Of a stretch of 55,744 nt of DNA, positions 25,379 to 42,173 are shown piece by piece. This DNA is from Gammaproteobacteria bacterium (lineage in GTDB: Bacteria; Pseudomonadota; Gammaproteobacteria; SZUA-229): NCBI GenBank assembly GCA_029881275.1, contig JAOUMX010000003.1, positions 1-55,744 on the forward strand, in the 5' to 3' direction. How positions within the stretch are numbered: position 1 is the first letter of the stretch; the number at the start of each line of letters is the position of its first letter. The notes under the pieces were generated by a model that worked only from the letters and a program-made list of their open reading frames with translations, did not search any database and was not told where the DNA came from. The position numbers and the translations under genes were made by a program.

Positions 25379-27403
25379 TTATTTTCTTGATCTAATTTGA
25401 ATATCAGGTAAGGCATCCAGTTGTTGCTGTAAAAAACTACTGGTGGTATTCAATTGCCCAATCAATGCATCCAGTGCGGTGAACTGTGCACGATAACGAT
25501 CTTCAATAGCAGCCACACGTTTATTAAGGCTTTCACGTTGTTCTGCAATACTTTTAATCTGATCATTGATTGTGTCTGTTTTAGATGTCAGTTGACCACT
25601 GCCGGATAAAAACCGGGCCAAAATTGCATCCAGTTTTCCAGCCAGCCCCTGACTATAAACTACACGGCCTCGATTACCTGTGTCATTACCGGAAATTTCC
25701 AGCGTTAAACCCAGTGCCGTTAATAACTGACCGTCACCGATGGCTGTTTTGCCACCAATAGTACCACTAACATTAACACCCTCTGTTTCAATGGCGTTAC
25801 TGGTGAAACCCAGTGCACTATTTGCATTAACAATACTGACTGTTGAATCACTGCCATAGGATGTAGAACTAATTTCAAAATGACCGCTTATATAACTAAC
25901 GGTGACACCCAAACCCTTATCAGATAAAGCAGTTGACGCATTAATCTTATCTTCGATTTCCTGCGCAAGAATATCCATATCATTATAAACAGCCTGGGTT
26001 AATGTGATGGTACCGGACGATGTACCATCAACAGAAAGACTGAATGTATTATTGGTACCATCAATAGTGACTGGCCCGGTAACCGCTTCCCCGGTTAATA
26101 AACCGTGGCTCGCTAATCTCGCTACACTTATTGCATAACTACCTTCGCTTGCAATAGATGCTGCACTGATATAGTTAACATCCGGGTCAGATGGCACACC
26201 ATTGGCATAAAATAATTCGGCAACCGATTCAAAATCATTTTCAATCGCCTTACTGAGTTTGGAACTATCCAGTGCCAGCGTACCATCCCGTTGCGTGGTA
26301 ATACCAATGGAACTTAATGACGTATAGATATTACCATTATTAACACTGCCACCAATTTCACGACGAATCTGGTTAATAATATTACGCGGCGTATTATCAC
26401 CTAACAACACACCACCCTGACCAGTGTCGGGATTATATTCGGTCAAACCACTATACAATGTCATCAATTCGTTATAAGCATCTACGAACTTACCAATATT
26501 TTTTTCTGCATTTTCCGTGCTTTTTGAAATGCTTAACTGAGTCGGATTACCAATATCTGCACTTTTTAAATTTAGCGTGACACCGTGTATGGCACCGGTA
26601 ATGGTATTACTTTCACGTGATATGGATAAACCATTCACCGTAATCAGGGCATCGGCTGCTGCCTGAGTTTGTTCTACATTGGTTGCACCACTGTTAAAGG
26701 CCAGTTGTGACAACCCTGTGGTATCCAGATTCTCACCAGCAGTACCACCTTCTTCTACAGAAATTTCAAGACTGTTGGCCAGACCCTGATCATCTGAAGT
26801 AATGAGCAAACGATAACCGGAACCATCATCCACAATACTGGCCGTAACACCGATACCAGCGGCGTTAATAGCATCACGCACACCTTCAACCGTATTATTT
26901 GAATTATCAATAACCACGGATTTGCTGGAACGATCAGGGTTACTGGTGAAACTGGTATAAGTATCATCCGCGGTTACAAAATCAGTACCCGGGTCATACA
27001 CCGTGGTTCCAAAATCAAACGTTAAAGTACCATTGCCAATAACAGACGTTAATTCAGAAAAGGCAACGGAGGCCAGTGAATGAGATTGAGCCAGTGACTT
27101 TACTTCAACAGAATAACTGCCTTCAACTGCCACACTGCTGGCCGTTGCGGATAACAGATCTTTATTAGCAATATTGACCGTATTGCTGGCAAATGAAATA
27201 GAGGATTTAAGTTTTGAAGCCGCTAGTTGAAAGGTACTGACTGCACCTTTCAAACTACCATAAGCAGATAGCTCAGCCTGTAAGCGAGCTTCCTTCAGCG
27301 TTAACTGAGCGTCCTTTGGGCCTCGTTCAGCATCAACTATCTGTTGTAACAGACTATTAACGTCGATTCCTGAACCTATTCCTGCTGCACTGAGTGAAGC
27401 CAT
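25379..27403 (-). CDS. fliD: Flagellar filament cap protein FliD (enlarged, 674 aa)
   Basis: The N-terminus SAAGIGSGIDVNSLLQQIVDAERGP and the C-terminus RYRAQFTALDALIGQLNTTSSFLQQQL are FliD hallmarks. Internal stretches resemble the IN motif (VEGVRDAINAAGIGVTASIVDDGSGYRLLITS; FSLSVDGTSSGTITL..INAS). Confidence 0.9.
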   Translation of the reverse strand: MASLSAAGIGSGIDVNSLLQQIVDAERGPKDAQLTLKEARLQAELSAYGSLKGAVSTFQLAASKLKSSISFASNTVNIANKDLLSATASSVAVEGSYSVEVKSLAQSHSLASVAFSELTSVIGNGTLTFDFGTTVYDPGTDFVTADDTYTSFTSNPDRSSKSVVIDNSNNTVEGVRDAINAAGIGVTASIVDDGSGYRLLITSDDQGLANSLEISVEEGGTAGENLDTTGLSQLAFNSGATNVEQTQAAADALITVNGLSISRESNTITGAIHGVTLNLKSADIGNPTQLSISKSTENAEKNIGKFVDAYNELMTLYSGLTEYNPDTGQGGVLLGDNTPRNIINQIRREIGGSVNNGNIYTSLSSIGITTQRDGTLALDSSKLSKAIENDFESVAELFYANGVPSDPDVNYISAASIASEGSYAISVARLASHGLLTGEAVTGPVTIDGTNNTFSLSVDGTSSGTITLTQAVYNDMDILAQEIEDKINASTALSDKGLGVTVSYISGHFEISSTSYGSDSTVSIVNANSALGFTSNAIETEGVNVSGTIGGKTAIGDGQLLTALGLTLEISGNDTGNRGRVVYSQGLAGKLDAILARFLSGSGQLTSKTDTINDQIKSIAEQRESLNKRVAAIEDRYRAQFTALDALIGQLNTTSSFLQQQLDALPDIQIRSRK

Positions 27404-27461
27404 TACCTACCTCTACACCAATAAACATTAAACAAAATGCTTACTGCAAATAAAAGGCCAA

Positions 27462-27836
27462 CTATGCAGATGTTTGAACAATCAGCCCTGTAATACCATC
27501 AACCTGTTCCTTCAGGCTACGTGAAATCTGTAACACTTCTTCGGAAGGAATTTGCCTGACCAGTTCAGCGGTCTCTGAATTCACTACCCGTATCACCGTT
27601 TTACCACTGGCATCATCAACACTGAATTGTAAATCGCGTTGTACCATCTGAACATGATCATTCAGTTGCTCAACGACTTTTTGTAATTCTTCTGCACTAA
27701 CAGCCTGAGCCTGTGGTTGTTCCGGTAAGGATTTGCCAGAATGAACCGTTGTTGCTGCCGGAGTTTGCCGGTTTGTAACGGATGCCGATGAACTCAGAAT
27801 ATTCGTTGCCTGGTTAGTTGCTATATCATTAGACAT
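27462..27836 (-). CDS. flaG: FlaG-family flagellar protein
   Basis: LQFSVDDASGKTVIRVVNSETAELVRQIPSEEVLQ is the FlaG signature. It lies between the flagellin gene and fliD. I prefer the ATG at 27836 (AAGGTG Shine-Dalgarno sequence) over the GTG at 27851. Confidence 0.8.
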   Translation of the reverse strand: MSNDIATNQATNILSSSASVTNRQTPAATTVHSGKSLPEQPQAQAVSAEELQKVVEQLNDHVQMVQRDLQFSVDDASGKTVIRVVNSETAELVRQIPSEEVLQISRSLKEQVDGITGLIVQTSA

Positions 27837-27873
27837 ACTCGCACCTTTCACAGTTCTTTAATAGTCACTTGAA

Positions 27874-27915
27874 CTCTGTGTAAACAGCACAGAGTGCCCG
27901 GAGTTCTCACTCCGG
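27874..27915 (-). terminator. Two adjacent 7-bp stem-loops downstream of the flagellin gene (possible terminator or attenuator)
   Basis: The stems are ctctgtg/cacagag (27874-27880 with 27888-27894) and ccggagt/actccgg (27898-27904 with 27909-27915). They lie 50-90 nt after the flagellin stop. No strong U-tract follows. Confidence 0.35.
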
Positions 27916-27966
27916 CCACCCTGTTTTAACAATAATGTTAATGCCGTTTCCATCAAGGCTCTAACC

Positions 27967-30528
27967 TTACTGAAGCAGACTCAATACCAGCTGTGGTAAT
28001 GAGTTAGCCTGTGCCAGCATGGCGACACCGGCCTGCTGCAGTATCTGCGTACGGGTCAGATTAGCTGTTTCAGCCGCAAAGTCTGTATCTTGAATTCGAC
28101 TACGTGCAGCGCTCAGGTTTTCTATGGTACGTGTCAGGTTTGAAACCGTGGTTTCAAATCGGTTCTGTACCGCACCCAGATCCGCACGAATTTCATCGAT
28201 TCGAGCCAAAGCACCGTCAGCAATATCGATAGCTGCATTAGCACCGGTTACTGAACTGATATCAATCGAATCAACTGTCTGGTTTTCACTGGCCTGCAGT
28301 TCATTAGCCTCACCATCAAACAAACCACCTGCAGTTTGTGCAATTGATGAATCTACACTGAAGTAACCACCATTTGATTTAAACTCAATTGAACCACCCA
28401 CAACAGTTGAATCTCTGTTATCAGCATTACCACCACCTGCTTCCAGACGAGTGGCTGGGCCTGTTGCACCCGTAACATCAAGAGTCACAGGGGGATTACC
28501 CAGACCATCTATAGCATTTGAACTATCAAAATTTAATATAGATATATTCTCACCGGTGTCATGTGTCAGGGTAATTGAAGCACCATCAAGACTCAGCTCA
28601 GCATTAACGCCGGTTTGACCTGAACGATCATTAATCGCCTCAGCAAGTGAGGATAAATCACCCGTTGTCACATTAGCCGAAATATCAGTACCATTTAAGT
28701 TAAATGAAACTACACCATCCAGGCTTAAATTAGACAATGTTGCTGTAGTAGTAGCCGTTGCCAGTACACCGGTGGAATCAGCCACTGCATTAATCTGTGC
28801 CACGATGCTTTCAGCATCTGCATTAGCCGACACATCGACTGTTGCAGTTACTTCACCGTTGATAGTCAGCGTTTGTGTCGCAACATTATTACCATTATCA
28901 ATATTCGCTTCACCAAAACCAGTTACCGTTGCAGCGGTACCTGCGGTTGCGATATCAAAAACACCACCATTGTTATTATTCAAACTTGAAGAAATGGTAT
29001 AACCTGCATCTAAAATAACTTCAATGGCTGCTATAGCTGTACCACTATCACCACCTGCTGCACTTTCACCAATCGCTGTGCCACCAAAATTGATATTTGA
29101 ACTAGCAACAGCAGCTGTAAATACTGCAGTATCAGTACCATTATCACCTAACAGACTTGCATCACCCGTAGTCTGAGCTGTGCTGCTATCATAAGCAATA
29201 ACATTTACAGTTGCATTTGTATCAGTTGGGTCATTAAGGAAAACTGTAGTAGTAGCTGCAGGCGTATCTGTATATGCAATTACACCTGTACCATCCGCTG
29301 TCAGTGAGGCAGTCACGTTAGCATTACCATCCAATGCTGACTGGAAAGCTGCTGCAACAGCAGCCTGATCAGTTACATCTACTGCAGATAAATCCAAAGT
29401 TACAAGATTACCACCGAAGCTGATCTGTACACCGGCTTCTGCTTCAAAACCTGCAAAAGTGTCAATCTGAATTGCACTATTATCAGTCACCAAGAAGTCT
29501 TCAATACCAATGTTTGTACCATCCGCATTAGAAATAGTTACCACGCCTGCTGAAGATACAGTTGCTTCATGTGTTGTATTACTTGTGGCCCTGGCATTAA
29601 TTTCTGCAGCCAGCTGATCCTCAAAGTTGGCATAGGTAATTGAATCACGATTAAATGATATCGCATCAGCCGTACCTGTATTGGTTGTAAGATTGAATGT
29701 CACCAGATCGCCATGGTTAACGCCAGCTGTTGCTGACACATCAATATCCACACTATTGGATGTTGGTGCTGATGCAGAAACACCAGTTAAATTCAAACCA
29801 TCAATCGCTGCTGCCAATGTAGCGCCTGTAGCATCTGCAATTGCAGCAAGACTGGCTGATTGCGTATTACCTTCAGCATCTGTCGCAGTAATTGTTTGTA
29901 GCAATGTTGCACCGGAATATGCTGCTGATGCATTAATCACCTGAGCATAAGATACAAAATCACTATTAGTCGCATTTGAAATACCCAACACTTCATTATT
30001 GGTTGAAACTTTATTAATACCCAGAACATCAGCAGTTGCACCAGATACATTTACATTAATGGTCTGATTGGCTTCTGCACCCACCTGGAAGGTCTGTGAT
30101 GTAAATGAACCATCCAGCAGTTTCAGGCTGTTGAATGATGTGGTATTCGCAATACGATCTAACTCGGAAATCAGCTGGTTAACCTCAGACTGTAATGACA
30201 GACGGTCAGTTGCAGAGTTAGTCGAGTTAGCAGACTGGATGGCCAGCTCACGAACACGCTGCAGAATGTTGGTTGATTCCTGTAATGCACCTTCAGCGGT
30301 TTGCGCTAATGAAATCGCGTCATTCGCATTTCGTGCTGCCTGTGTCAGGCCTCGAATCTGAGACGTGAAACGGTTTGAAATCGCCAGGCCCGCAGCGTCA
30401 TCTTTAGAGCTGTTGATTCGCAGACCGGATGATAGACGTTGTAATGACGTCTGTAATTCACCCTGGCTACGGCCCAGGTTACGTTGAGCATTCAAAGATG
30501 CAAAGTTGGTATTAATGACTTGAGGCAT
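27967..30528 (-). CDS. fliC: Giant flagellin (853 aa from the preferred start)
   Basis: It has the conserved N-terminus [45 protein letters not shown] and C-terminus [55 protein letters not shown]. About 580 aa of central sequence is rich in T, A, N, S and G. The ATG at 30528 has an AGGAGA Shine-Dalgarno sequence. The ORF-track start at 30561 adds 11 aa. Confidence 0.95.
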
Positions 30529-30626
30529 AGCCTTTCTCCTGTTCTTCAGCCGCTTAACCAAGTCGACTGAAGTTACGACTTGTTTGTGGCGAAATTAACG
30601 TAAAGTTAGTTGTTCTTTCAGTGAAT

Positions 30627-30653
30627 GTATCGGCTTTACCCAGGTTTACTTTA
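30627..30653 (-). promoter_or_regulatory. Sigma-28 (FliA) promoter of the flagellin gene
   Basis: The minus strand reads TAAAGTAA-N11-GCCGATAC against the consensus TAAAGTTT-N11-GCCGATAA. It lies ~100 nt upstream of the ATG. An A8-GTC-T7-G-A8 tract (30665-30691) sits immediately upstream and resembles an UP element. Confidence 0.75.
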
Positions 30654-30845
30654 GAAAAATTTAGAAAAAAAAGTCTTTTTTTGAAAAAAAATATTAACTT
30701 GTTGATTTTGCTATCTATTTCATCAAAAGAAAAGGCTATTTAATAACTGATTTTAGCCCTGAAACGGGACTTTTGCCGGGTTTGCCGGAATAAATAAGAA
30801 GAGCTGGAACCATCTGAAAATGCCGTTGAGTGCTAACAGCAAAAG

Positions 30846-30918
30846 GGATTGCCACGCCAGGGCCGCCATGACCGAGGTGAATTGTCATGGCGAGACGTGT
30901 TTTACGTCACAGCAATCT
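30846..30918. repeat. GC-rich nested imperfect palindrome (REP-like element) between flgL and the flagellin promoter
   Basis: The inner 9-bp stem is cgccatgac/gtcatggcg (30863-30871 with 30883-30891). The outer arms are gattgc/gcaatc (30848-30853 with 30912-30917). Its GC content stands out from the AT-rich surroundings. Confidence 0.5.
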
Positions 30919-30990
30919 AGATAGCAGGCGCACATGACTTCGCTGGCGCCCACCACAACATGGAAAAAACTGGCTCTAACCTGTGACAGT

Positions 30991-33366
30991 TTAAATAAAA
31001 TTAAACAACGACAAGTTCTGTATCTTAACAAAGGTCTGCTGGGCTATCTGCAACACCGACGTCTGGAAGGTCATATTACTAATGGCTTCAGCCAGGTCCA
31101 GATCTTCAATATCGGATCGAATTTTCTGCATGTGTTCTTTTTTAGCCGCATTGGTTTCCAGCTGACTATCGATGGCGTTCAGTCGCCCACCAATACTGGT
31201 TTGTATTTTGGTCACGCTGTCGAAGGCCCGACTCAGATTATTTAATGCATTATCAATCTGCTGGGACAAATAGGAACGGTGTGGTGTGCCGGATAAAAAG
31301 CTCACCGCGCCATTACCCACGGTAATTTGCGGAATCACAGCACCAAATAAATTGGCTGCACCGACACCTGCCGCTTCAGCCACCGTAATCGTGGTACCCG
31401 GACCCGTTGCCGTGGTCGACAATGCCAGACCACCCACTGCGCTTTCAGTCGCAATCGCCACCGGGGAACCAAATGCGGAATTGATGGCAGTGTTGATGGC
31501 AGCCAGCAAAGCCGCCGATGTACCATCACCCACACCAACAGGGGCAGCGGTATAATCGACTGCGGGAATCACCACATTCTGAGTGACACCATTCACTTCA
31601 AGTGAAAAAGTACGATCGGCTGCCGCGACAGCGGAAAGATCCAGGCCCGCAGAAATATCGACACGCAAAGCAGCAATATTGGTTGCCGTCGCCGGGGTAC
31701 TGGCAGCTGATGAACTGGCAATGGTATTACCACTGGCCGTTAGACTTAAGACCGCATCATTGGCTACCGAGTCGCGTAAATTGCTAATACTAAATGTATT
31801 CTGATTATTTCTGGTGCCACCACTGCTAATAAACTCTATCTCTGTACCGGTCGCATTCAGTCGAAAAGTAATATCAGTACCGGGTGCTGAACCGGCAATG
31901 GTCACCGAACCATCGGGGTTAGTTACACCTGCAACGGCAGTGATTTCAGTAAAAATCTGTCCCGCAATGGCAGCATTACTGGCAGCACCAACAGTAAAGT
32001 TAATGGGTATAAACTGATCGTTGAACTGCATATTAAAATCAATCACGTCACCGACATCAAAACCGTTATTCACAAAGTCACCGCCAATGACACCACGAAC
32101 ATCAGCTGAGATGGGCGCTTCCAGACTGTTAATCAACTGATTTAAGGTATTAAACATATCCTGATGACGACTGGCTTCAACGGTAAACACATCACCATCG
32201 GCCGGTTCACCACTGATCTCAACCTGTATACCGTTAAAGGCAATGATGCCGCCATCACTATAAGCCTGATTAGCTAACACCGTGACACCGGTGGTGTTAT
32301 TAATCACACTGTATTCAAACTGGGGTGGATTGGCTGGTGCATCCGTTCCAGTAACTGAAAGACCACCACTGATGAAATCAGCAATCACAGCACCGCCAAG
32401 ATCAACATCACCATCGAAGTTACTGATAACCGGTGCCGTACTGGTTGCTCCGGTGGCGGTTCTGGCAATGGTAATGGTTCCAGCATTTTCGCTGACAGCA
32501 TAATTAGTTGTACCTAGCGCAGTGGCGATGGCTGCGGCCATTCCTGCCGGATCATTCACATTGGAGGCCAGGGTTACCGTAGTGGTATCCACATCAAAAC
32601 TGACCTGATCTGTCGTAAAATCAAACGATGCCAGTGCAGACACATCAATAGCATAACTGCCTGCAGTTGGCTGGTTTTCGCTGAACACAATGGAAAAATC
32701 GTGTGCCTGAACAAGCGAAGACGTGATCACCGAACCGGTTGATATTTTTGCAACGCCGCCATTGGTACTATTCGCATCCACTGCAAAGGTTCCATTGCCG
32801 GTACGAATCATCTGAAATACTTCGGCACCGGAATCATTGGCAATCACCTGTCGATTGGTACCAATCTGTATGGCCAGATTACCCTGGTCACCGTTATACA
32901 AATAGTTACCATTACCATCGCTGACAAAGGGCTCTATGGCAGACTGAAACCCGGCAAAAATAAATTCGCCACTGGCATCACGGGTATTGGCATAACCGAG
33001 TAATTCCTGAAGTTTTTCGCGTATTTCCGCGGCAATAATACGCTCTTCCTCACCACCATAAGTACCAATATTCGCAGCCTGTATGGACAGTTCTTTAACA
33101 CGAATTAATAAATTACTGACACTATCAAGTGTGCTTTCTTCAAGATTCAAACGCTGGGTCGCGTAATTGGCATTTTCTTCATGTTGTGTCATTTGCGAAA
33201 TCACTTCATCCAGACTCATGATGCGCGCAAAAGCACCGGGGTCATCAGAAGGTGACGTAAAATTCACACCTTTGGATATTTTATTCTGCTCGGCAACCAG
33301 TTTGGCCTGCTGATCCAGAATATTCTGAACACCCTGTGTATGAAGATATGTTGTCGAGACGCGCAT
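30991..33366 (-). CDS. flgL: Hook-filament junction protein FlgL (HAP3), greatly enlarged at 791 aa
   Basis: The N-terminus is flagellin-like (MRVSTTYLHTQGVQNILDQQAKL..SSPSDDP-type motif), and the C-terminus reads RLNAIDSQLE..DLDLAEAISNMTFQTSVLQIAQQTF. About 500 aa of central sequence is T/A/G/N-rich. Confidence 0.9.
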   Translation of the reverse strand: MRVSTTYLHTQGVQNILDQQAKLVAEQNKISKGVNFTSPSDDPGAFARIMSLDEVISQMTQHEENANYATQRLNLEESTLDSVSNLLIRVKELSIQAANIGTYGGEEERIIAAEIREKLQELLGYANTRDASGEFIFAGFQSAIEPFVSDGNGNYLYNGDQGNLAIQIGTNRQVIANDSGAEVFQMIRTGNGTFAVDANSTNGGVAKISTGSVITSSLVQAHDFSIVFSENQPTAGSYAIDVSALASFDFTTDQVSFDVDTTTVTLASNVNDPAGMAAAIATALGTTNYAVSENAGTITIARTATGATSTAPVISNFDGDVDLGGAVIADFISGGLSVTGTDAPANPPQFEYSVINNTTGVTVLANQAYSDGGIIAFNGIQVEISGEPADGDVFTVEASRHQDMFNTLNQLINSLEAPISADVRGVIGGDFVNNGFDVGDVIDFNMQFNDQFIPINFTVGAASNAAIAGQIFTEITAVAGVTNPDGSVTIAGSAPGTDITFRLNATGTEIEFISSGGTRNNQNTFSISNLRDSVANDAVLSLTASGNTIASSSAASTPATATNIAALRVDISAGLDLSAVAAADRTFSLEVNGVTQNVVIPAVDYTAAPVGVGDGTSAALLAAINTAINSAFGSPVAIATESAVGGLALSTTATGPGTTITVAEAAGVGAANLFGAVIPQITVGNGAVSFLSGTPHRSYLSQQIDNALNNLSRAFDSVTKIQTSIGGRLNAIDSQLETNAAKKEHMQKIRSDIEDLDLAEAISNMTFQTSVLQIAQQTFVKIQNLSLFNFI

Positions 33367-33368
33367 AG

Positions 33369-35729
33369 CTATACCACTTCAAGTAAGGTATTAAATAAAG
33401 TTTGTGCCGTTTGCACCACACGGGTCATAGCCTGATAAGCCTGCTGAAATTTAATTAAATTCGCCGCTTCTTCATCCAGGTTAACACCGGATAAAGATTC
33501 ACGTTCGGTAATGGCGTTATTTAATAATGTGGTTTCAACTTCAAGATTAATTTTAAACTGCTGCGTTAAAGTACCTATCTCAGATACCATGGCACGATAG
33601 GACTGTTCGTAACTGGCTGAGTAATTATCAATAAATGACTGGTTCTGTAAGCCCGCCAGTAACAGCATGTTTCGATTATCAGTTGCAGCACCGTCATTCA
33701 TTTCGACAGTTAAATTATCACCAGCTTCCGGACTGCCACTGATACGTACCTGCCAGCCATTCTGGCTGACCAGCATATTACTTGAATAGGCAACATTGTC
33801 CTGAAGTATGTTACCCGTGGCTCTATCAACCACATCAAAGGTACCCGTCGGATTGGTGGGATCAAAAAAAACATCAACAGTTCTTAGAAAATCGGCATGG
33901 GTTGCATCCGTAATCGTACCGGAAGAAATAGCCACATCCCCCAGATTTGAAACCGATGACAGTGTACGAATCGGAAAGGCAGCGGCAACGGCATTGGGAT
34001 CAGTAATGATGCGTTGAAATGCAATGGCGGCGGTACGCGTGGGACGAATAAAAAATGAATCCCCTGCATTAATAGCACCACCAACGGTTATATCCAGACC
34101 ATCGATATTAAAAGGACCAGTGGCACTGGTCGCGATAATGGATTTGTCACTTAATCGAAGCAGCGTGTAGTTGGCACCATCATAACTCACTTCATAATCA
34201 GACACGGTTAAGGCAGATACATCACTGATCGTATAAAGAACTTCACCTGTACCGGTATTATTTATATTCGAAATGGCCGAATTACTCGGACCGACAAACG
34301 TAACCGGAATGCCTACAGTGGCAATGCCCGGATTAAAACTGGTACTGTTAGACCCGATACCTGCCAGTGACAACCGGGCATCCACCGTACCCACAGCATT
34401 ATCATCCAGCATATTATTAATCACCAGGGTATTACCCAGAGAACTCGGACCACCGGCTGATTGAAATTCAATATTGCTGCCATTTAACTGAAATGTGAGT
34501 GAGACACCGGCCGTGGCACCACCTGCCAGAGTATAGGTGCCATCGAGGTTATCGGTTACATTTGCATTGGCATTGATGTCCGCAATAATGCCATTGGCAA
34601 TATCAAGATTAGTATCAAGTGCGCCAACAGTATAGGCAACATTAATGGTCTGTCCGTCAAACACCAGATCAAAACTAACCGTATCACCGACTTCAAAACC
34701 GGCGTTTAAATAATCACCACCAAAACTACCGCGCAAATTACCCACGCCCACGGTGCTGAAAAAATTTGTTCCCATGTTGCCATTCAGATCCAGACCCTGA
34801 ACATGCTGCGCATTAAATGTTTCTGACAAGGCAATGGCGGTGCGCCCGAGTCTGTTTTGTGCGACATCTAACAGATTATTTCTGAAATCCAGCAAGCCAC
34901 CCAGTTCACCACCAATCGCCGTATTGCTTAAATCCAGTGAACCACCGGTACTGCGTAATCGAATGGCTAAACGATCCGGCTGTGCGGGATCAGCCTGTGC
35001 ACCTAATTGTAAAGCAGTGGTTCCGGTGACCAGTAACTGACCTGAACCCATGAGCACATTTAAAGTACCATCACCCTGCTCAAGAACAGTGACGGTCATT
35101 TTTTCTGATAACCGTTTTAAGACCAGATCCCGTTTATCCAGCAGATCATTAGGTTGCTGATTGACTGCAGCCACTCTGATGATGGCATCATTCAGGCGGG
35201 CAATATCGGCCGTTAATGCATTTACTTCATTGATGGTAAAACTGATACGCTCATCAGCTTCCTGTTCCATATTCTGCATTTCTGTACCGATGGTAACAAA
35301 TGAATGCTCAAGCACCTCTGCTGCACCCAGCAAGGCAACTCGTGGCTCGTAACCGGCCGGGTCATTGGCAACATCATTGAGAGAATTAAAGAAGCCATCC
35401 ATTGCTGACATTAAACCACCCGACTCATTGGCTACCAGAGACTCCACCCGGGTAGCAAACTCCTCGAAAATACCCATGCGCGATGTGGTCGAAGTAAACT
35501 CACGAATATTCGCAGTAACATAATTATTAACAATACGGCGAACATCATCGGTCAGTACACCCTGGCCAATAAACTCATCACCCACTCGAAGGGGGGTGCG
35601 TGTTGCCAGCTCGACATCCTGACGGGAATAACCTTCAGTGCCGACATTAGCAATATTATGGGATGTGGTCGCAAGCGCAGCTTGATAGGCATTTAAGCCA
35701 GTTAAAGATGTAGTTAAAATATCAGGCAT
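33369..35729 (-). CDS. flgK: Hook-associated protein FlgK (HAP1), 786 aa
   Basis: The N-terminus GLNAYQAALATTSHNIANVGTEGYSRQ and the C-terminus SGVNLDEEAANLIKFQQAYQAMTRVVQTAQTLFNTLL are FlgK hallmarks. Confidence 0.95.
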   Translation of the reverse strand: MPDILTTSLTGLNAYQAALATTSHNIANVGTEGYSRQDVELATRTPLRVGDEFIGQGVLTDDVRRIVNNYVTANIREFTSTTSRMGIFEEFATRVESLVANESGGLMSAMDGFFNSLNDVANDPAGYEPRVALLGAAEVLEHSFVTIGTEMQNMEQEADERISFTINEVNALTADIARLNDAIIRVAAVNQQPNDLLDKRDLVLKRLSEKMTVTVLEQGDGTLNVLMGSGQLLVTGTTALQLGAQADPAQPDRLAIRLRSTGGSLDLSNTAIGGELGGLLDFRNNLLDVAQNRLGRTAIALSETFNAQHVQGLDLNGNMGTNFFSTVGVGNLRGSFGGDYLNAGFEVGDTVSFDLVFDGQTINVAYTVGALDTNLDIANGIIADINANANVTDNLDGTYTLAGGATAGVSLTFQLNGSNIEFQSAGGPSSLGNTLVINNMLDDNAVGTVDARLSLAGIGSNSTSFNPGIATVGIPVTFVGPSNSAISNINNTGTGEVLYTISDVSALTVSDYEVSYDGANYTLLRLSDKSIIATSATGPFNIDGLDITVGGAINAGDSFFIRPTRTAAIAFQRIITDPNAVAAAFPIRTLSSVSNLGDVAISSGTITDATHADFLRTVDVFFDPTNPTGTFDVVDRATGNILQDNVAYSSNMLVSQNGWQVRISGSPEAGDNLTVEMNDGAATDNRNMLLLAGLQNQSFIDNYSASYEQSYRAMVSEIGTLTQQFKINLEVETTLLNNAITERESLSGVNLDEEAANLIKFQQAYQAMTRVVQTAQTLFNTLLEVV

Positions 35730-35785
35730 CGTCTTCCCTCAAAAACCGAAGCACCGCAAACAATCAGGATTTTTCGGCTTCTTCA

Positions 35786-36724
35786 TTAAATTATCGGCAG
35801 CTCACGGGTATTCTTTAATTCTGAGACCTGCGTTTTTAACAGATCACTGTTTCTGATTCGTTCTATTTTGCGGGCATAATCCGGATCGGTGGCATAACCG
35901 GCCTGCTGTAATTCTCGTGCGTAATCTACCGGGTTAAAACCTTTTTCCAGCGCCTGCTGATAACGCGGGTTCGACTGGATGAAATCCACATAATCATTAA
36001 ATGCCTCACCAATCGAGTCGTAAGCTCTGAACTGTGCTTTTTCGCGTTGCATGGCACCGTCTTTAAATTCCAGCGTTGCCACCGTAATCGCTTTACCCTG
36101 CCAGCGCTGATCCGCCTTGATGCCAAACAAACTAAAACTGTTATCACCATTCTCAAACTGACGCACATGCTGACCCCAGCCAGTTTCCAGTGCGGATTGT
36201 GCCATCAGGACTTCAGGCTCGACACCCAGCTCATCGGCTGCTTTAACCGCATGTGGCCAGATATCATGAATAAAACTTTGCTGATCATCCCAGAGCAGGT
36301 TATTTTCATTTAACGAACGGCTTTGTTCTGTATAGGGATGATCAATAGCGGATACCTGTGCCACAATTTTCTGTGTCACCACAGGATGTGCCAGATAATC
36401 TGACATTGTTTTTTCGGTGAATGGTTCCGTTGACTGTCCACCCAGTTGACGTTCAATCACCGCCGCCAGACCAATGCCCTTACCCGATGCAATATTCAAA
36501 CTGATTTGTTTGTCGTACATATCCTGATACATGCGTTGTTGCTTGCTATTAAACAAACCGTCTTCCGGCATGGTGTCACGCATACTTTTCAACATCATTT
36601 GCACAAACAGAGACTCGAACTGTTTGGCCACTTTTTTAATAACTTCAGGTGATTGTCCTTTTGCTTCATTACGTAAAGCAGTGAAACCCTGAAAATCAGT
36701 GTATGTTGATGTATCTGAAATCAT
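35786..36724 (-). CDS. flgJ: Flagellar rod assembly protein and peptidoglycan hydrolase FlgJ
   Basis: An N-terminal rod-binding domain (VAKQFESLFVQMMLKSMR) is followed by a C-terminal glucosaminidase domain (LMAQSALETGWGQH..NSFSLFGIK..YATDPDYARKI). Confidence 0.9.
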   Translation of the reverse strand: MISDTSTYTDFQGFTALRNEAKGQSPEVIKKVAKQFESLFVQMMLKSMRDTMPEDGLFNSKQQRMYQDMYDKQISLNIASGKGIGLAAVIERQLGGQSTEPFTEKTMSDYLAHPVVTQKIVAQVSAIDHPYTEQSRSLNENNLLWDDQQSFIHDIWPHAVKAADELGVEPEVLMAQSALETGWGQHVRQFENGDNSFSLFGIKADQRWQGKAITVATLEFKDGAMQREKAQFRAYDSIGEAFNDYVDFIQSNPRYQQALEKGFNPVDYARELQQAGYATDPDYARKIERIRNSDLLKTQVSELKNTRELPII

Positions 36725-36726
36725 CG

Positions 36727-37833
36727 CTAGATAACAATTAATTCTGCCGTTAATGAACCCGCCTGTTTCAATGCTTCCAGTATGGCGACCAGATCACCCG
36801 GCGCTGCACCCACCTGATTGACAGCCTGCACAATTTCATTCAATGAAACACCCGGCGTAAACATGAACATACGACTTTCAGGTTGCTCGATATTAATTTG
36901 AGTATTCGGTACCACTGCGGTTTGACCACCCGCTAATGGATTTGGCTGGCTCACCTGTAAATCTTCAGTAATGGTCACCGTCAAACTGCCATGACTGACC
37001 GCCGCCGGTTTAACGCGAACCGTTGAACTGATGACAACCGTGCCGGTTCTGGAATTTATAATAATCCGCGCCGGTGCATCATCCGGTGCGACTTCCAGAT
37101 TTTCCAGGAAGGAAATAAATTCAACTTTCTGTGTTGTCGTTGGTGGTGTTAAAACCTGTACTGAAACAGCATCAATCGCCTCAGCACTGTCTGGACCCAG
37201 GGCACGGTTAATTACTTCGACCACACGCTTGGCAGTAGTGAAATCACTGCGATGCAAATTTAGAACAATTTTTTTCATCTGATCAAATGGATTGGGTACG
37301 GTACGTTCAACTGTCGCGCCATTGGGAATACGCCCCACACTGGGCACATTGACAGTTACCTTGGAACCATCACTACCGGATATGCCAAAGCCACCGACAA
37401 TTAAATTACCCTGCGCCACGGCATAAATATTGCCATCGGCACCTTTGAGTGGTGTCATTAACAAACTGCCACCTCTTAAACTCTTGGCATTACCCAGTGA
37501 CGAAACGGTAATATCAATTTGCTGACCCGGTTTACTAAATGGCGGCAGTTCGGCATGAATAGACACAGCGGCAACATTTTTCAGCTGCAAGGTCATGTTA
37601 GCCGGCAAGTTAATGCCGTATTGTAATAACATGTTCTTGAAACTTTGTACGGTAAACGGTGTTTGACTGGTTTGGTCACCGGTACCATCAAGTCCGACAA
37701 TCAGTCCGTAACCGACTAACTGATTGCTTCGCACACCAGCCACAGAAGCTATATCCTTGATACGCTGCGCCTGTACAGGCGCAACTAACAGGGCACTTAG
37801 TGTTATTACTGTAATGAGTATTCGCCACAACAT
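36727..37833 (-). CDS. flgI: Flagellar P-ring protein FlgI
   Basis: It has a signal peptide ending VQAQ, then [30 protein letters not shown] and the C-terminal [18 protein letters not shown]. Confidence 0.95.
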
Positions 37834-37864
37834 AATTAATCTCTCTGCTATTTCCTATATCAAT

Positions 37865-37879
37865 GCAAATCGGAGGCCA
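37865..37879 (-). promoter_or_regulatory. Candidate sigma-54 promoter immediately upstream of flgI
   Basis: The minus strand reads TGGCCT-CCGAT-TTGC(A), with exact GG/GC -24/-12 spacing. It lies ~32 nt upstream of the flgI ATG, the same geometry as the flgB promoter. Confidence 0.45.
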
Positions 37880-37893
37880 GTTTTTAACTTCCG

Positions 37894-37923
37894 GGGGTCG
37901 GAGTTAAATTTGACTCCGACCCC
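37894..37923. other. Perfect 11-bp stem-loop in the flgH-flgI spacer
   Basis: ggggtcggagt-ttaaatttg-actccgacccc was read directly. No flanking U-tract is present on either strand. Confidence 0.8.
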
Positions 37924-38065
37924 TAAACTCTCATGACTTTGCATAACTTGTCTGATGATCTTGCGCACGCCGCTCTCGGCTGCTCTGGTTTAGTACTTCT
38001 ATTACTCTTAAGCACGTCGCTCCTGCGCATCCATGCGCCCGCGACATACAGGTCATCCTGACCAT

Positions 38066-38090
38066 AAAAAAAGCCCGCACTGGGCGGGCT
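38066..38090 (-). terminator. Rho-independent terminator downstream of flgH
   Basis: The minus strand reads AGCCCGC-CCAGT-GCGGGCT followed by TTTTTT. It has a 7-bp GC-rich stem and a 5-nt loop, and lies ~75 nt after the flgH stop. Confidence 0.7.
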
Positions 38091-38165
38091 AACAAAACAA
38101 GTAGTGATTGTGTGAGAGAATCTGTAATCCTGCTTTCCCAATAAAACAGGAATTTCGTATACAGA

Positions 38166-38861
38166 TTAGAAAGGCCACCACTTGCTGTTGAGGAACTGAG
38201 TCAACCAGCCCTGATTATTACTGTCCGCAACAAATCCTTCGCCACTATAGGCGATCTGGGCATCGGCCAGTTTTGCTGAAGCAACTGAATTATCCGCCTT
38301 AACATCCTGCGGTCTGATAACACCTGCAATACGGATATATTCTTTACCCTGATTCAAAGTGAACCATTTTTCACCCTGAACAACCAGATTACCGTTAGGC
38401 AGAATATCCACCACCGTGACAGTAATTTCACCATTCAGGCTATTGCTCTGAGTACTATCACCTTCCCCCTGAAATTCACGAGTTGGATTCATTGAAAAAT
38501 CAACCGGGTTTCCATTATAAGTTGGCGAGCGACCTAACAGAGTCGGTGCACCCAGTGAAATATTGTCATCTTTTTTAGTACTGGTTGCTGCGGATTTACT
38601 GGCACTGGTACTTTCCGCCAGCATAATGGTGAGTATGTCACCTATACGAAACGGTTTTGGATCTTCAAATAATGAAATACTGCGCGCCTGATACAAAGAA
38701 CCGTTTTCATAGACCGGCGCCGGTGGCGCAACAGGTCGCACGATCGGTTCAAAATCTGCCAGGTCCTGTGGAATAGTTGAACAGGCTGTTAAAAAACCCA
38801 GCAGAATAAATGCTGCGGAAATATTTATTATTTTAAAATCACACATAAATACATCTCTCAT
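38166..38861 (-). CDS. flgH: Flagellar L-ring lipoprotein FlgH
   Basis: It has a lipobox (GFLTAC), then LFEDPKPFRIGDILTIML and ITVTVVDILPNGNLVVQGEKW. An alternative start at 38846 (MCDFKI) is possible. Confidence 0.95.
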   Translation of the reverse strand: MRDVFMCDFKIINISAAFILLGFLTACSTIPQDLADFEPIVRPVAPPAPVYENGSLYQARSISLFEDPKPFRIGDILTIMLAESTSASKSAATSTKKDDNISLGAPTLLGRSPTYNGNPVDFSMNPTREFQGEGDSTQSNSLNGEITVTVVDILPNGNLVVQGEKWFTLNQGKEYIRIAGVIRPQDVKADNSVASAKLADAQIAYSGEGFVADSNNQGWLTQFLNSKWWPF

Positions 38862-38874
38862 TGACGTTTAATCA

Positions 38875-39660
38875 TTACAGATTATTAGTCACGTATTGCA
38901 ACATGCTATCCGTTGTTGAAATTACTTTGGAATTCATTTCATAAGCACGCTGGGTTTCAATCATGTTAACCAGTTCTTCAACCACATTAACATTTGAACT
39001 TTCCAGTGCTCCGTTACTTAAAGAACCCAGACCGTTTAATCCCGGTGTACCTGCCTGTGGTGAACCACTGGCAGCTGTTTCATTAAATAAATTTTTACCT
39101 ATGGCCTGAAGACCGGTTGGATTAACAAAATCCACTGTCTGAATATTACCAACCTGTGTAGGTGTTGAGGCATTACCCACCAGTACAGTAACGACACCAT
39201 CTTCACCAATGGTTAAGCCCTGTGCTCCTGATGGCACAGTAATAGTTGGTTGCAGCTGATACCCGTTGGCGGTAACCACCTGCCCCTGAGAGTCCAGCTG
39301 GAAAGAACCATCACGGGAATAGGACAAAGAACCATCGGGTTTTAAAATCTGAAAAAAACCACGACCTTCAATGGCAAGATCCAGCGGGTTACTGGTTTGC
39401 ACAATGTTGCCCTGAGTATGTAATTTTTCTGTTGCCACCACACGCACACCCGTACCAATCGATTTACCTGATGGCAACTGAGTATCTTCTGAAGACTGAC
39501 TACCTACCTGTCGGTGTGTCTGATACATTAAATCTTCAAACACCGCCTGATCACGTTTAAAACCATTGGTATTAACATTGGCAAGATTATTTGAAATAAC
39601 TGACAGGCGAGTTTGTTGCGCATCAAGACCTGTTTTCGAAATCCACAGTGCCGGGTTCAT
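38875..39660 (-). CDS. flgG: Flagellar distal rod protein FlgG
   Basis: [34 protein letters not shown] and the C-terminal [36 protein letters not shown] are typical. The protein is 261 aa. Confidence 0.95.
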
Positions 39661-39673
39661 AAATTACTCCACA

Positions 39674-40420
39674 TTAACTGTTACGTAATAACCGCGCAGA
39701 AACCTCATCGGATTCCTGTGCTGTTTTCATAATTTTTACATTGGCTTCAAACTGTCTGGCGTTCTCGATCAGATTCACCAGTTCAGAAACCGCATTTACA
39801 TTACTTTGCTCCAGTACACCGGACGCCAGGCTGACGCTGGCATCTGGATTTGCCGTGTTTAAATTCCCATCGATATATCGCAATAAACCATCAGGCCCTT
39901 TTTGCATTAACGACTGATCAGGATTTACCAGCCTGATACGATCAAGAATAGCCATGGTGTCAGCGGTCTGACCGGTAGGAATAATACTGATAGAACCATC
40001 GGCACCAATTTCAACTTTGTCTGCAGGAGGAATAACAATGGGACCCGAGTTACCGATAACGGGATGACCAACACCATTGGTTAACATGCCATTAGCATTA
40101 ATTCTTAAATCGCCGGCACGGGTATACGCCTGCGAGCCATCAGGTGCCTGTATGGCAATCCAGCCTTCGCCATTAACGGCAATATCCAGATCACGTCCAG
40201 TTGAGGTAAAACTACCCGGCATTAAATTAATACCGGATGCTTCATGCCTGTTATAGGCACGGCTATTAAAACCGGGACCTTCAACATGCCAGGTACTGAA
40301 ACTGTCCAGGTTTTCCTTAAATCCAAGCGTACTCGCATTAGCCAGATTGTGACTGATGTTGGTTTGCGCCTGCATCGCCTGCTTGGCACCATTCATGGCT
40401 ATGAAAAGCATTTTATCCAT
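39674..40420 (-). CDS. flgF: Flagellar proximal rod protein FlgF
   Basis: ISHNLANASTLGFKE and the C-terminal LEQSNVNAVSELVNLIENARQFEANVKIM match FlgF. It lies upstream of flgG. Confidence 0.9.
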   Translation of the reverse strand: MDKMLFIAMNGAKQAMQAQTNISHNLANASTLGFKENLDSFSTWHVEGPGFNSRAYNRHEASGINLMPGSFTSTGRDLDIAVNGEGWIAIQAPDGSQAYTRAGDLRINANGMLTNGVGHPVIGNSGPIVIPPADKVEIGADGSISIIPTGQTADTMAILDRIRLVNPDQSLMQKGPDGLLRYIDGNLNTANPDASVSLASGVLEQSNVNAVSELVNLIENARQFEANVKIMKTAQESDEVSARLLRNS

Positions 40421-40448
40421 GGGTTATGTACCTGTTACCTGTTCAGCC

Positions 40449-42173
40449 CTAACGTATATTGATAATGGTTTGCGTAATTGTATTGGCCGTTTCAATGGCT
40501 TTTGAATTCGCCTGGAAATTACGTTGCGCAGTAATCAGTTTCACCAGCTGTGCGGTTAAATCCACATTCGATGTTTCCAGTGCACCTGCCTGAATTAAAC
40601 CAAAGTTACCGGTACCGGCTTCACCTGACACAGCCTGACCTGAACTTACCGTTTCTACCCAGGACGTATTACCAATCTGATTCAAACCCTGGGGATTATC
40701 AAAACGTGCCAACGCAATTTTACCCAGTGCTGTTGTCTGACCATTAGTGAAACTGGCCCGTACCAGACCTTCATCATCAATTTCCAGACCACTTAAACGA
40801 CCGGTAGCAAAACCATCCTGATTCAATGACTGTACTGAAAATGAACCCTGTGCTTCCTGGGTAATGGTATTACCCTGATTAGTGAAATCGATATTAAAAG
40901 TGGTATTGGGAGACCCAATTGGATTGGCACCATTCAATGGATTAAAAGGTGCATACTGAACGTTACCACCATTAGTCGAAGTTGCTGCCTGCAATACACC
41001 GGCACCATCAAAATCCAGTGCTGCATTCCAGGTTGGAGTGAAAAGTGGATTGGTGGCAGCTGCACCGGCTATGGTTGTTGTGCCTGTGACGATATCAACA
41101 GCTGTACCACTGGCGATAATATTACTAATCGCTATATCACTGGTAGCACCTGGAGTGTTACTGGTAATCACAAGATTACCACTGGTAGAATCAGCCGTCG
41201 CTGCAGCACCAAGAGCCGCGTTAATTGCAGCATCAAGTGCTGCAGCGTTGAGGTAAGGTGCATTTAAAACGACAGGTATAGCAGGTGCAACACCATCGAC
41301 TGTTACATCAAACGAAAGTGTGTTGGGGGCCGAGTAATCCACTGGAAAAGCAATCGCCGCAGTACCTGTATATACCTCAGCAATATCGGGTGTTGGCACA
41401 CCAGGGCCGATCGTGTTTGGCATCGGATAGCCATCCATGGTTGAACGCACCTGCCAGGTATTCTGAAGGTCATCATTCATGACAAAATACATGGTTAAGA
41501 TGTGTGAGTTACCCTGCGAATCGAACACCGTTGCCGAGGTTGACGTATGGTAATTATTAGGATTAGGTGCCACCTGTGCAAGGGCACGGCCATTCACATC
41601 ACCACCGCCATAGGCCAGGGAAAATTCAGCATCAATCGCCGCCGTAGATAATGCTACCGGTATATCTGACGGAAAACTTAAATTGATATCCACCTGCGTG
41701 GTTCCCTGTGGCGTTCCCACTGTATTGGGTACCTGTAAAGGCACAGTGCCGGATAAACTGGTGGTCGTTACATTACCGACAGCATCCACAGGAAACACCT
41801 GTAATACCTGAGCTGCACTATTGGCAATGATGCCATTTTGATTAACATTAAATGCGCCTGCACGGGTATAGATAAGATCATTAGTGCCCTGCTCACGCAT
41901 GACATAAAAACCTTCACCGGTAATGGCCAGATCAAGTGTATTCTCGGTAAATTCCAGATTACCCTGAGTAAACTGTTGAGAAACATTTGCCAGCACCACA
42001 CCATCACCAATAGCTTTGCTGGTTGAACCCAGTGATGAAGCAGCAAAGATATCGGCAAACTCGGCACGTGATCCTTTAAAACCGGTGGTACCGACATTGG
42101 CAATATTATTACTGGTTACTGACAGATCCGAAGATGCTGCATTAAGACCACTCAATGAAATACTAAACGACAT
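40449..42173 (-). CDS. flgE: Flagellar hook protein FlgE (enlarged, 574 aa from the preferred start)
   Basis: MSFSISLSGLNAASSDLSVTSNNIANVGTTGFK and the C-terminal LETSNVDLTAQLVKLITAQRNFQANSKAIETANTITQTIINIR are FlgE hallmarks. The ATG at 42173 has a GAGGAG Shine-Dalgarno sequence. The ORF-track start at 42251 overlaps flgD. Confidence 0.9.
   Translation of the reverse strand: MSFSISLSGLNAASSDLSVTSNNIANVGTTGFKGSRAEFADIFAASSLGSTSKAIGDGVVLANVSQQFTQGNLEFTENTLDLAITGEGFYVMREQGTNDLIYTRAGAFNVNQNGIIANSAAQVLQVFPVDAVGNVTTTSLSGTVPLQVPNTVGTPQGTTQVDINLSFPSDIPVALSTAAIDAEFSLAYGGGDVNGRALAQVAPNPNNYHTSTSATVFDSQGNSHILTMYFVMNDDLQNTWQVRSTMDGYPMPNTIGPGVPTPDIAEVYTGTAAIAFPVDYSAPNTLSFDVTVDGVAPAIPVVLNAPYLNAAALDAAINAALGAAATADSTSGNLVITSNTPGATSDIAISNIIASGTAVDIVTGTTTIAGAAATNPLFTPTWNAALDFDGAGVLQAATSTNGGNVQYAPFNPLNGANPIGSPNTTFNIDFTNQGNTITQEAQGSFSVQSLNQDGFATGRLSGLEIDDEGLVRASFTNGQTTALGKIALARFDNPQGLNQIGNTSWVETVSSGQAVSGEAGTGNFGLIQAGALETSNVDLTAQLVKLITAQRNFQANSKAIETANTITQTIINIR

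Follow-up and report, generated by a model that had tools for sequence, protein, structure and literature searches.

Hook, junction, filament and cap proteins of an uncultured gammaproteobacterium enlarged by inserted domains, most of them probably of one FliD-D3-like family

What has enlarged the proteins of the external flagellar axis in one bacterium, and do the additions have a common source? This question is raised by the window, by which we mean the whole stretch of 55,744 nucleotides that was analyzed (contig JAOUMX010000003.1 of assembly GCA_029881275.1), from an uncultured, marine-type gammaproteobacterium. The minus strand of the window carries the late part of a flagellar gene cluster of polar type, in which the hook protein FlgE, the hook-filament junction proteins FlgK and FlgL, flagellin and the filament cap protein FliD are all long. 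We consider it probable (roughly 0.62) that these proteins are true orthologues enlarged by self-contained surface domains, mostly of one family resembling domain D3 of FliD, which were copied stepwise among flagellar genes. The five genes are:

40449-42173, minus strand: flgE, hook protein, 574 residues (start MSFSISL; Pfam Flg_bb_rod, D1, FlgE_D2 and Flg_bbr_C; NCBIfam FlgE, 1e-121)
33369-35729, minus strand: flgK, hook-filament junction protein 1, 786 residues (Pfam FlgK_D1 and a FlgK D2-like domain; TIGR02492, 1e-92)
30991-33366, minus strand: flgL, hook-filament junction protein 2, 791 residues (TIGR02550, 5e-75)
27967-30528, minus strand: flagellin gene, 853 residues (start MPQVINT; Pfam Flagellin_N and Flagellin_C; NCBIfam flagellin, 4e-122)
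25379-27403, minus strand: fliD, filament cap, 674 residues (Pfam FliD_N and FliD_C)

These lengths had been put forward in a first-pass annotation of the window and held up at the coordinates given, as did its claims that the conserved terminal helices are intact in all five proteins and that rod and ring proteins have ordinary lengths. The N- and C-terminal helical regions are complete by Pfam and NCBIfam, and FlgB (130 residues), FlgC (136), FlgF (248), FlgG (261), FlgH (231) and FlgI (368) have lengths that agree with those of relatives to within a few residues. Family-specific terminal helical and core domains, together with the gene order (flgB, C, D, E, F, G, H, I, J, K, L, followed by flagellin, flaG, fliD and fliS), mark FlgE, FlgK, FlgL, flagellin and FliD as true orthologues; a model of FlgL predicted by AlphaFold2 (AF2) also matched the Legionella and Xanthomonas FlgL proteins at 1e-16 in Foldseek. 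The window contains a single flagellin gene.

These lengths could in principle have been inflated by errors in assembling a metagenome bin or in choosing start codons. Indeed, the window comes from a metagenome assembly, as do all its closest relatives (unclassified Gammaproteobacteria), and mechanically called open reading frames (ORFs) are longer for FlgE (600 residues) and flagellin (864 residues), as they begin at upstream TTG codons. However, every ORF is continuous with both conserved ends present, the starts used here (MSFSISL and MPQVINT) fit the family profiles from position 1, and other, independent assemblies show the same architectures (L001, P0001-P0005, P0111 and L118; loci and proteins outside the window carry our L and P numbers). 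The chance that the enlargement is an artefact of this kind is next to nil.

Insert boundaries were set by aligning the proteins with their shorter orthologues at 30 related loci, which placed the extra mass in discrete central inserts and, in flagellin, in most of residues 171-765. The corresponding features are:

41025-41387, minus strand: FlgE insert, residues 263-383, inside the D2 domain, where it splits the Pfam FlgE_D2 match; a FliD-D3-like or IN-like module
34284-34745, minus strand: FlgK insert, residues 329-482, between the D1 helical domain and the D2-like domain; M2-type
32317-32670, minus strand: FlgL module M1, residues 233-350; FliD-D3-like or IN-like, joining the family seeded from the FlgE insert
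31681-32109, minus strand: FlgL module M2, residues 420-562; homologous to the FlgK insert
31285-31680, minus strand: FlgL module M3, residues 563-694; a divergent IN-like module
28234-30018, minus strand: flagellin central region, residues 171-765, holding two IN-type double units
26621-27052, minus strand: ordinary central domain of FliD, residues 118-261, with a Pfam IN motif at 168-205
25649-26197, minus strand: FliD insert, residues 403-585, inside the FliD_C match; internal duplicate of the N-terminal head region of FliD

The FlgE insert is missing from 19 related FlgE proteins of 404-444 residues and the FlgK insert from relatives' FlgK of about 635-645 residues; in FlgL, the added segments span residues 233-350 and 420-694. 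The inserts consist to 52-58% of T, A, S, G and N and contain 0.8-7.7% K, R and E, as compared to 40-49% and 6-13%, respectively, in the remainder of the proteins. Such discrete central inserts, rich in T, A, S, G and N and poor in K, R and E, confirm the enlargement noted in the first pass and its placement in the central regions. A motif of the form F-x-(L/V)-x-V-(D/N)-G, followed by a helix with A-I-N and by strands, recurs in the FlgE insert, in FlgL M1 and M3 and in the FliD insert, and takes a variant form in the FlgK insert and FlgL M2.

The FlgE insert, FlgL M1 and M3 and the FliD insert belong together by several lines of evidence. Against a word index of 5.8 billion proteins the FlgE insert alone found no match; a full HMMER scan gave 13. 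It matches FlgL segments of other organisms (P0090, 2e-12; P0002, 41% identity over 115 residues; P0109), and the insert recurs at 60% identity in P0111, a FlgE fragment of unplaced origin. In profile-profile comparisons with hhalign, the family seeded from the FlgE insert (E_ins) reached 99.6% probability with the FlgL M1 family (E 1e-23) and 97.2% with M3 (E 4.5e-11). Iterative searches of all ORFs of the first 110 loci (L001-L110), spiked with shuffled and reversed decoys, joined the FlgE insert, FlgL M1, FliD 433-564 and FliD 118-261 and recruited zero decoys, the FliD central domain (118-261) being reached both from the FlgE insert and from the FliD insert as seed. A profile of the FliD insert (83 FliD sequences and one FlgL sequence) matches the FlgE insert, and a hidden Markov model (HMM) built from FliD only matches residues 268-369 of the window FlgE. 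Seeded from the FliD insert, a profile matches FliD 77-296 as well as 401-588; the insert is an internal duplicate of residues 77-296. Significant profile similarity to the contiguous FliD central domain was found for all of these modules, and the module profile matched Pseudomonas aeruginosa FliD in the PDB (5fhy).

The FlgK insert and FlgL M2 form a second module family. They share 36% identity (BLAST 1e-20; Smith-Waterman z=23.5 against shuffles), and theirs is the sole clear pairing, all other insert pairs reaching z<=4.2. M2 is found in about 80 FlgL proteins of relatives and the homologous insert in just 8-9 FlgK proteins. In a neighbour-joining tree of the modules, which carries no bootstrap values, the FlgK copies form one clade nested among the FlgL copies, as would be expected had the module been copied once from flgL to its neighbour flgK. 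Candidate links beyond this pair were dropped: an M2 profile gave only weak filamin and ulilysin matches in the PDB, which we judged to be due to chance, and one jackhmmer run on a small database connected M2 with the IN family, a link that neither a larger database nor hhalign reproduced and that we therefore do not claim.

In flagellin, the central region contains two IN-type double units, at residues 210-354 (29467-29901) and 546-680 (28489-28893), and a profile built from the second matches both. With the Pfam model PF07196 (Flagellin_IN; gathering threshold 22.7 bits), flagellin scored 41.3 bits over two stretches within residues 553-660 (E 2e-10) and FliD 168-205 scored 24.7 bits (E 2.6e-5). 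Two canonical FliD members of the module family reach the Pfam IN model at 3.7e-8, and among 14 module sequences there was a single match, at E 0.013. A single-sequence phmmer search from one flagellin IN unit returned nothing significant.

In the AF2 model of FlgL (mean predicted local distance difference test [pLDDT] score 74.5), the order of elements is alike in M1, M2 and M3: strand, hairpin, helix, hairpin and further strands. M2 was modelled at a pLDDT of 75-88 and the hairpin-helix-hairpin-strand of M1 and M3 at 40-84. A Foldseek search with the whole model linked it to Campylobacter jejuni FlgL (9gsx, 744-750 residues); matches to the D0/D1 core dominated, with nothing on the modules.

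The modules are discrete, were gained by duplication and transfer among flagellar genes, and lie in those domains that face outermost in solved structures of hook, junction and cap. Modules of about 110-150 residues would have entered loops of these outermost domains, leaving untouched the D0/D1 helices, which build the tube and bear the export signals. The FlgE insert, FlgL M1 and M3 and the FliD insert would make up the main family, with the flagellin IN units as more distant members. The parent of this family would be the IN-motif domain that forms the contiguous, D3-like middle of every FliD (β-hairpin, helix, β-hairpin, strand), from which copies would have spread by duplication and recombination among neighbouring flagellar genes; M2 would have originated in FlgL and been copied once into the adjacent flgK. 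The modules would project outward and add an outer protein layer to hook, junction, filament and cap.

Module profiles also reached beyond the window and its closest relatives. FliD-D3-like modules are found in the flagellins P0110, P0112 and P0113 and in the FlgE proteins of L111 (two copies) and L113 (four copies). P0110 is a 598-residue flagellin from another metagenome with an M1-type module at 211-324 (phmmer 6e-19 against FlgL M1); the FlgL/FlgE-type module therefore occurs in flagellins too. The L113 protein (P0121, L113 1326-3890) is an 854-residue FlgE bearing its four copies in tandem. Two proteins of 1056 and 714 residues (P0120 and P0115) contain seven and five matched stretches, respectively, and no Pfam domain. 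In M1-type FlgL copies, N-[YF]-[ND]-G-D-V-D is conserved after the core (alignment A1, columns ~140-150), a motif that the FlgE copy does not have; a metal site is one possibility for it.

A module profile (alignment A4, built from the window modules at 41025-41387, 32317-32670 and 25649-26197 and those of relatives) further matched two phage tail sheath proteins: gp6 of Vibrio phage XM1, in its insertion domain (7KH1, E 5e-5), and another sheath protein (8kee). Six of the 24 module family members match the Pfam sheath family DUF3383. By these matches, the domain that decorates the flagellum also decorates phage tails. A first, mixed module profile (A1) had found only antibody matches in the PDB, which we put down to chance.

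By sequence comparison, the five enlargements arose at different times. The duplication in FliD would be the first step, old and widespread: the sister group of the window clade has long FliD and otherwise ordinary proteins. M2 in FlgL and a large flagellin, then the FlgK copy, would have followed; the FlgK insert was gained in the window clade, with the exception of L032. FlgL in the window lineage grew from about 400 to about 550 residues with M2, and to 791 residues with M1 and M3. The latter two modules are restricted to the window, L001 and P0001-P0005 and, being confined to the closest relatives, are therefore the latest gains. The gain of the FlgE insert looks late as well; within the window clade it is seen in the window alone, L001 and the other closest relatives having yielded no full-length FlgE.

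Do the five proteins vary in size together? The sample of loci was made up of 31 with FlgK, 79 new ones found by FlgL profile and 8 found by exact protein look-up, and the comparison of matched expansion covered 116 related loci. Lengths were counted from ORFs with both ends aligning to the window proteins; those for flagellin refer to the locus itself, genes elsewhere in each genome not being counted. With kinship ignored, flagellin measured at least 580 residues in 13 of 13 loci whose FlgL had at least 500 residues, versus 3 of 50 otherwise (Fisher p=5e-11), and FlgL measured at least 500 residues in 9 of 9 loci whose FlgE did so, versus 8 of 55 otherwise. Where FlgE had at least 500 residues and the flagellin length was known, flagellin reached at least 580 residues in six of six loci, versus 6 of 41; for FlgK of at least 750 residues the figures were six of six versus 8 of 53.

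Large size in this sample appears nested, large FlgE occurring within large FlgL and large FlgL within large flagellin. The pattern is seen in at least five lineages (among the window clade, L043/L049, L046, L111, L112/L114, Cellvibrio and Marinobacter) and does not hold in the other direction: flagellins of 870, 871 and 1014 residues occur with FlgE of 443 or 429 or FliD of 485 residues. No relative with ordinary flagellin in the 116-locus sample has a FlgE, FlgK or FlgL as long as that of the window, whereas long FliD proteins are common next to ordinary flagellins. FliD of 647-697 residues, with the insert at the same site, was present in 22 of 50 loci (phmmer 6e-9 to 2e-49), most of which are otherwise ordinary (flagellin 267-505, FlgE ~421, FlgK ~640 and FlgL ~400 residues). 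The outer layers on flagellin, FlgL and FlgE may be under some joint constraint; such a constraint on neighbouring layers would account for the restriction of large FlgL to loci with large flagellin and of large FlgE to loci with large FlgL.

Several observations weigh against a common origin and coupling of the enlargements. The Flagellin_IN model gave no match at E<=10 on the excised FlgE insert, FlgL M1 and M3 and the FliD insert, these copies being too divergent for the Pfam model; the repeated IN motif of the first-pass annotation is thus real as a pattern in the FlgE, FlgL and FliD inserts but stays below the Pfam threshold there. Between the flagellin IN units and the FlgE-insert family, hhalign gave 59% (E 9e-5), which is suggestive at most. 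The FlgK insert and M2 failed the Flagellin_IN threshold without a match, and their hhalign probability against the IN-like family, 44-56% with shallow profiles, was a non-significant 10-12% with deeper ones. For the FlgE insert, AF2 with a 10-row alignment yielded no usable structure (pLDDT 41.8), and for that reason no fold search was made with it. The size associations take no account of phylogeny, and six of the added loci had been selected for long FlgL. The length of FlgK does not depend on that of FlgE, and an ordinary FlgK of 643-646 residues accompanies large FlgE, FlgL and flagellin in several lineages. Flagellin (FliC) and FliD lengths do not correlate significantly (rank correlation rho 0.14-0.15).

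Co-variation of neighbouring axial proteins in the sample, with kinship ignored, is strong for FlgL with FliC and for FlgE with FlgL, and absent for FliD with FliC and for FlgE with FlgK. Of the matched expansion originally proposed, the coupling of FlgL with flagellin, and of FlgE with FlgL and flagellin, is seen in this sample; FliD is uncoupled, and FlgK is partly coupled, going with flagellin but following its own course with respect to FlgE. The proposal that all the modules are related fared similarly. Homology links the FlgE insert, FlgL M1 and M3 and the FliD insert, and a relation to the flagellin units is plausible, but the FlgK insert and FlgL M2 are a separate family without demonstrable link to IN domains.

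The same data bear on a rival account, in which the five enlargements are independent and functionally uncoupled: loops would tolerate insertions, diversifying pressure (phage, grazers, adhesion) or drift would supply them, and their co-occurrence would be a coincidence of lineage. Long FliD, older than the other gains, adjoins ordinary flagellins in 17 loci, and large flagellins coexist with ordinary FlgL in L056, L063 and L105. Mosaics point the same way, as in L032 (FlgE 431, FlgK 636, FlgL 554, flagellin 712 and FliD 475 residues), L049 (FlgK 759, FlgL 530, flagellin 1014 and FliD 485 residues) and L112 (FlgE 639, FlgK 643, FlgL 636, flagellin 835 and FliD 480 residues), as does the lack of dependence of FlgK on FlgE size. 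Strict nesting of FlgL with flagellin and of FlgE with FlgL, recurring in separate lineages, speaks against this account, which we regard as rather unlikely.

A bolder version of coupling, which we hold to be unlikely, has one continuous outer layer of FliD-D3-like copies running along hook, FlgL ring, filament and cap and built in the order flagellin, then FlgL, then FlgE. If it were true, the outer domains of adjacent parts would have to fit across each junction, hence the fixed order, and the layer would be a protein analogue of the membrane sheath, with an assembly rule for the thickening of a multi-part machine.

In several relatives with enlarged axial proteins, large tetratricopeptide repeat (TPR) proteins with sulfotransferase domains are encoded beside the flagellin genes, at L112 11908-16205, L114 11919-14474, L115 14050-15879 and L117 7568-9385; these proteins may be flagellin modifiers.

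Adhesion, glycan carrying and phage evasion are alternative roles for the modules. The modules might be display domains, for adhesion, for carbohydrate or mineral binding or as glycan carriers, which would make the flagellum an attachment organelle. The inserts are rich in Thr and Ser and almost devoid of charged residues, the same domain sits on phage tail sheaths, and TPR-sulfotransferase genes adjoin flagellin genes in relatives. The window itself, however, contains no glycosylation or sulfotransferase gene, the inserts matched no ligand-binding family, and we know of no binding role for the parent domain in FliD. We consider display very unlikely as the explanation of the enlargement.

In the remainder of the cluster, fliS is followed by sigma-54 regulators and then by fliE onward, with fliK, chemotaxis genes and flgA close by. 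A 332-base stretch between flgI and flgH (37834-38165) is without an ORF of at least 100 residues, and an Rfam scan of the window found no known RNA family anywhere.

How far is such an expansion new? The novelty initially attached to enlarged hook, junction and cap proteins was overstated, because Campylobacter and Helicobacter sets (PMC12221982; PMC5691160; PMC8306008) and a domain-gain proposal (PMC11532411) precede it; outer-domain expansion of axial proteins is already known and is not a new kind of structure. Enlarged FlgE, FlgK, FlgL and FliD have been described in Campylobacter and Helicobacter, where one part diverging to fit another has been proposed (PMC5691160; PMC12221982; PMC8306008). 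Their FlgE measures about 720-840 residues and their FlgL about 750-830 residues with a bulky D2, FliD has a D4 or D4-D5, and FlaA is multi-domain. By domain layout, both systems share extra outer domains on hook, junction, filament and cap over a conserved D0/D1. The window differs in that it is gammaproteobacterial with a polar-type cluster, and in using mostly one FliD-D3-like module plus the FlgK/FlgL module.

Thomson et al. (2018) defined giant flagellins as exceeding 1000 residues and described them, with thick filaments, in the Oceanospirillales Bermanella marisrubri and Oleibacter marinus (PMC6248924); where that paper mentions FlgL, FlgE or the hook, their sizes go unremarked, and FliD is not mentioned. 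At 853 residues, the window flagellin falls short of that size; it is similar in architecture, as a marine gammaproteobacterial flagellin with a central duplication and insertion. It has also been put forward that flagellins acquired their outer domains step by step from flagellar genes, domains D4/D5 of the Geovibrio thiophilus flagellin being related to FliD D2 (PMC11532411). Our reading resembles that proposal in that pre-existing flagellar-gene domains would be added stepwise by recombination and duplication; unlike in Geovibrio, where flagellin alone is concerned, FlgE, FlgL, FlgK and FliD are affected too, and the donor resembles FliD D3 rather than D2. In the literature we found no description of a FliD-D3-like module in FlgE or FlgL, of a module shared by FlgK and FlgL, or of the nested size pattern.

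Comparable enlargement is also found in cultured organisms. In Cellvibrio zantedeschiae (GCA_014652535.1, L116 1-18738), FlgE has at least 816 residues, FlgK 931, FlgL 659 and two flagellins 776 and 862, so that FlgE, FlgK and the longer flagellin exceed those of the window; the stretch analyzed does not include FliD, and we found no paper describing this flagellar cluster. IN-type modules occur in its FlgE, FlgK and both flagellins and are of the flagellin type recognized by Pfam IN, whereas those of the window are of the FliD-D3-like E_ins type. In Marinobacter halodurans, FlgE has 651 and FlgL 515 residues. The Marinobacter loci L077 and L107 encode FlgE of 624-651 residues with a flagellin-type IN double unit at 185-315, close to the start of the counterpart of the D2 region of the window's FlgE; IN modules are therefore found in hook proteins of cultured genera as well.

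The outer domains of flagellin are a current topic in structural microbiology, while those of hook, junction and cap have hardly been surveyed. In the locus described here and its relatives, the hook, FlgL, the cap and probably flagellin appear to have reused a small domain that every cap protein contains, and adjacent genes appear to exchange modules, as from FlgL to FlgK. C. zantedeschiae, being cultured, offers a ready experimental model, accessible to cryo-EM. If the nesting of sizes survives a phylogenetic test, it would provide a concrete case of the parts of a machine constraining each other's evolution.

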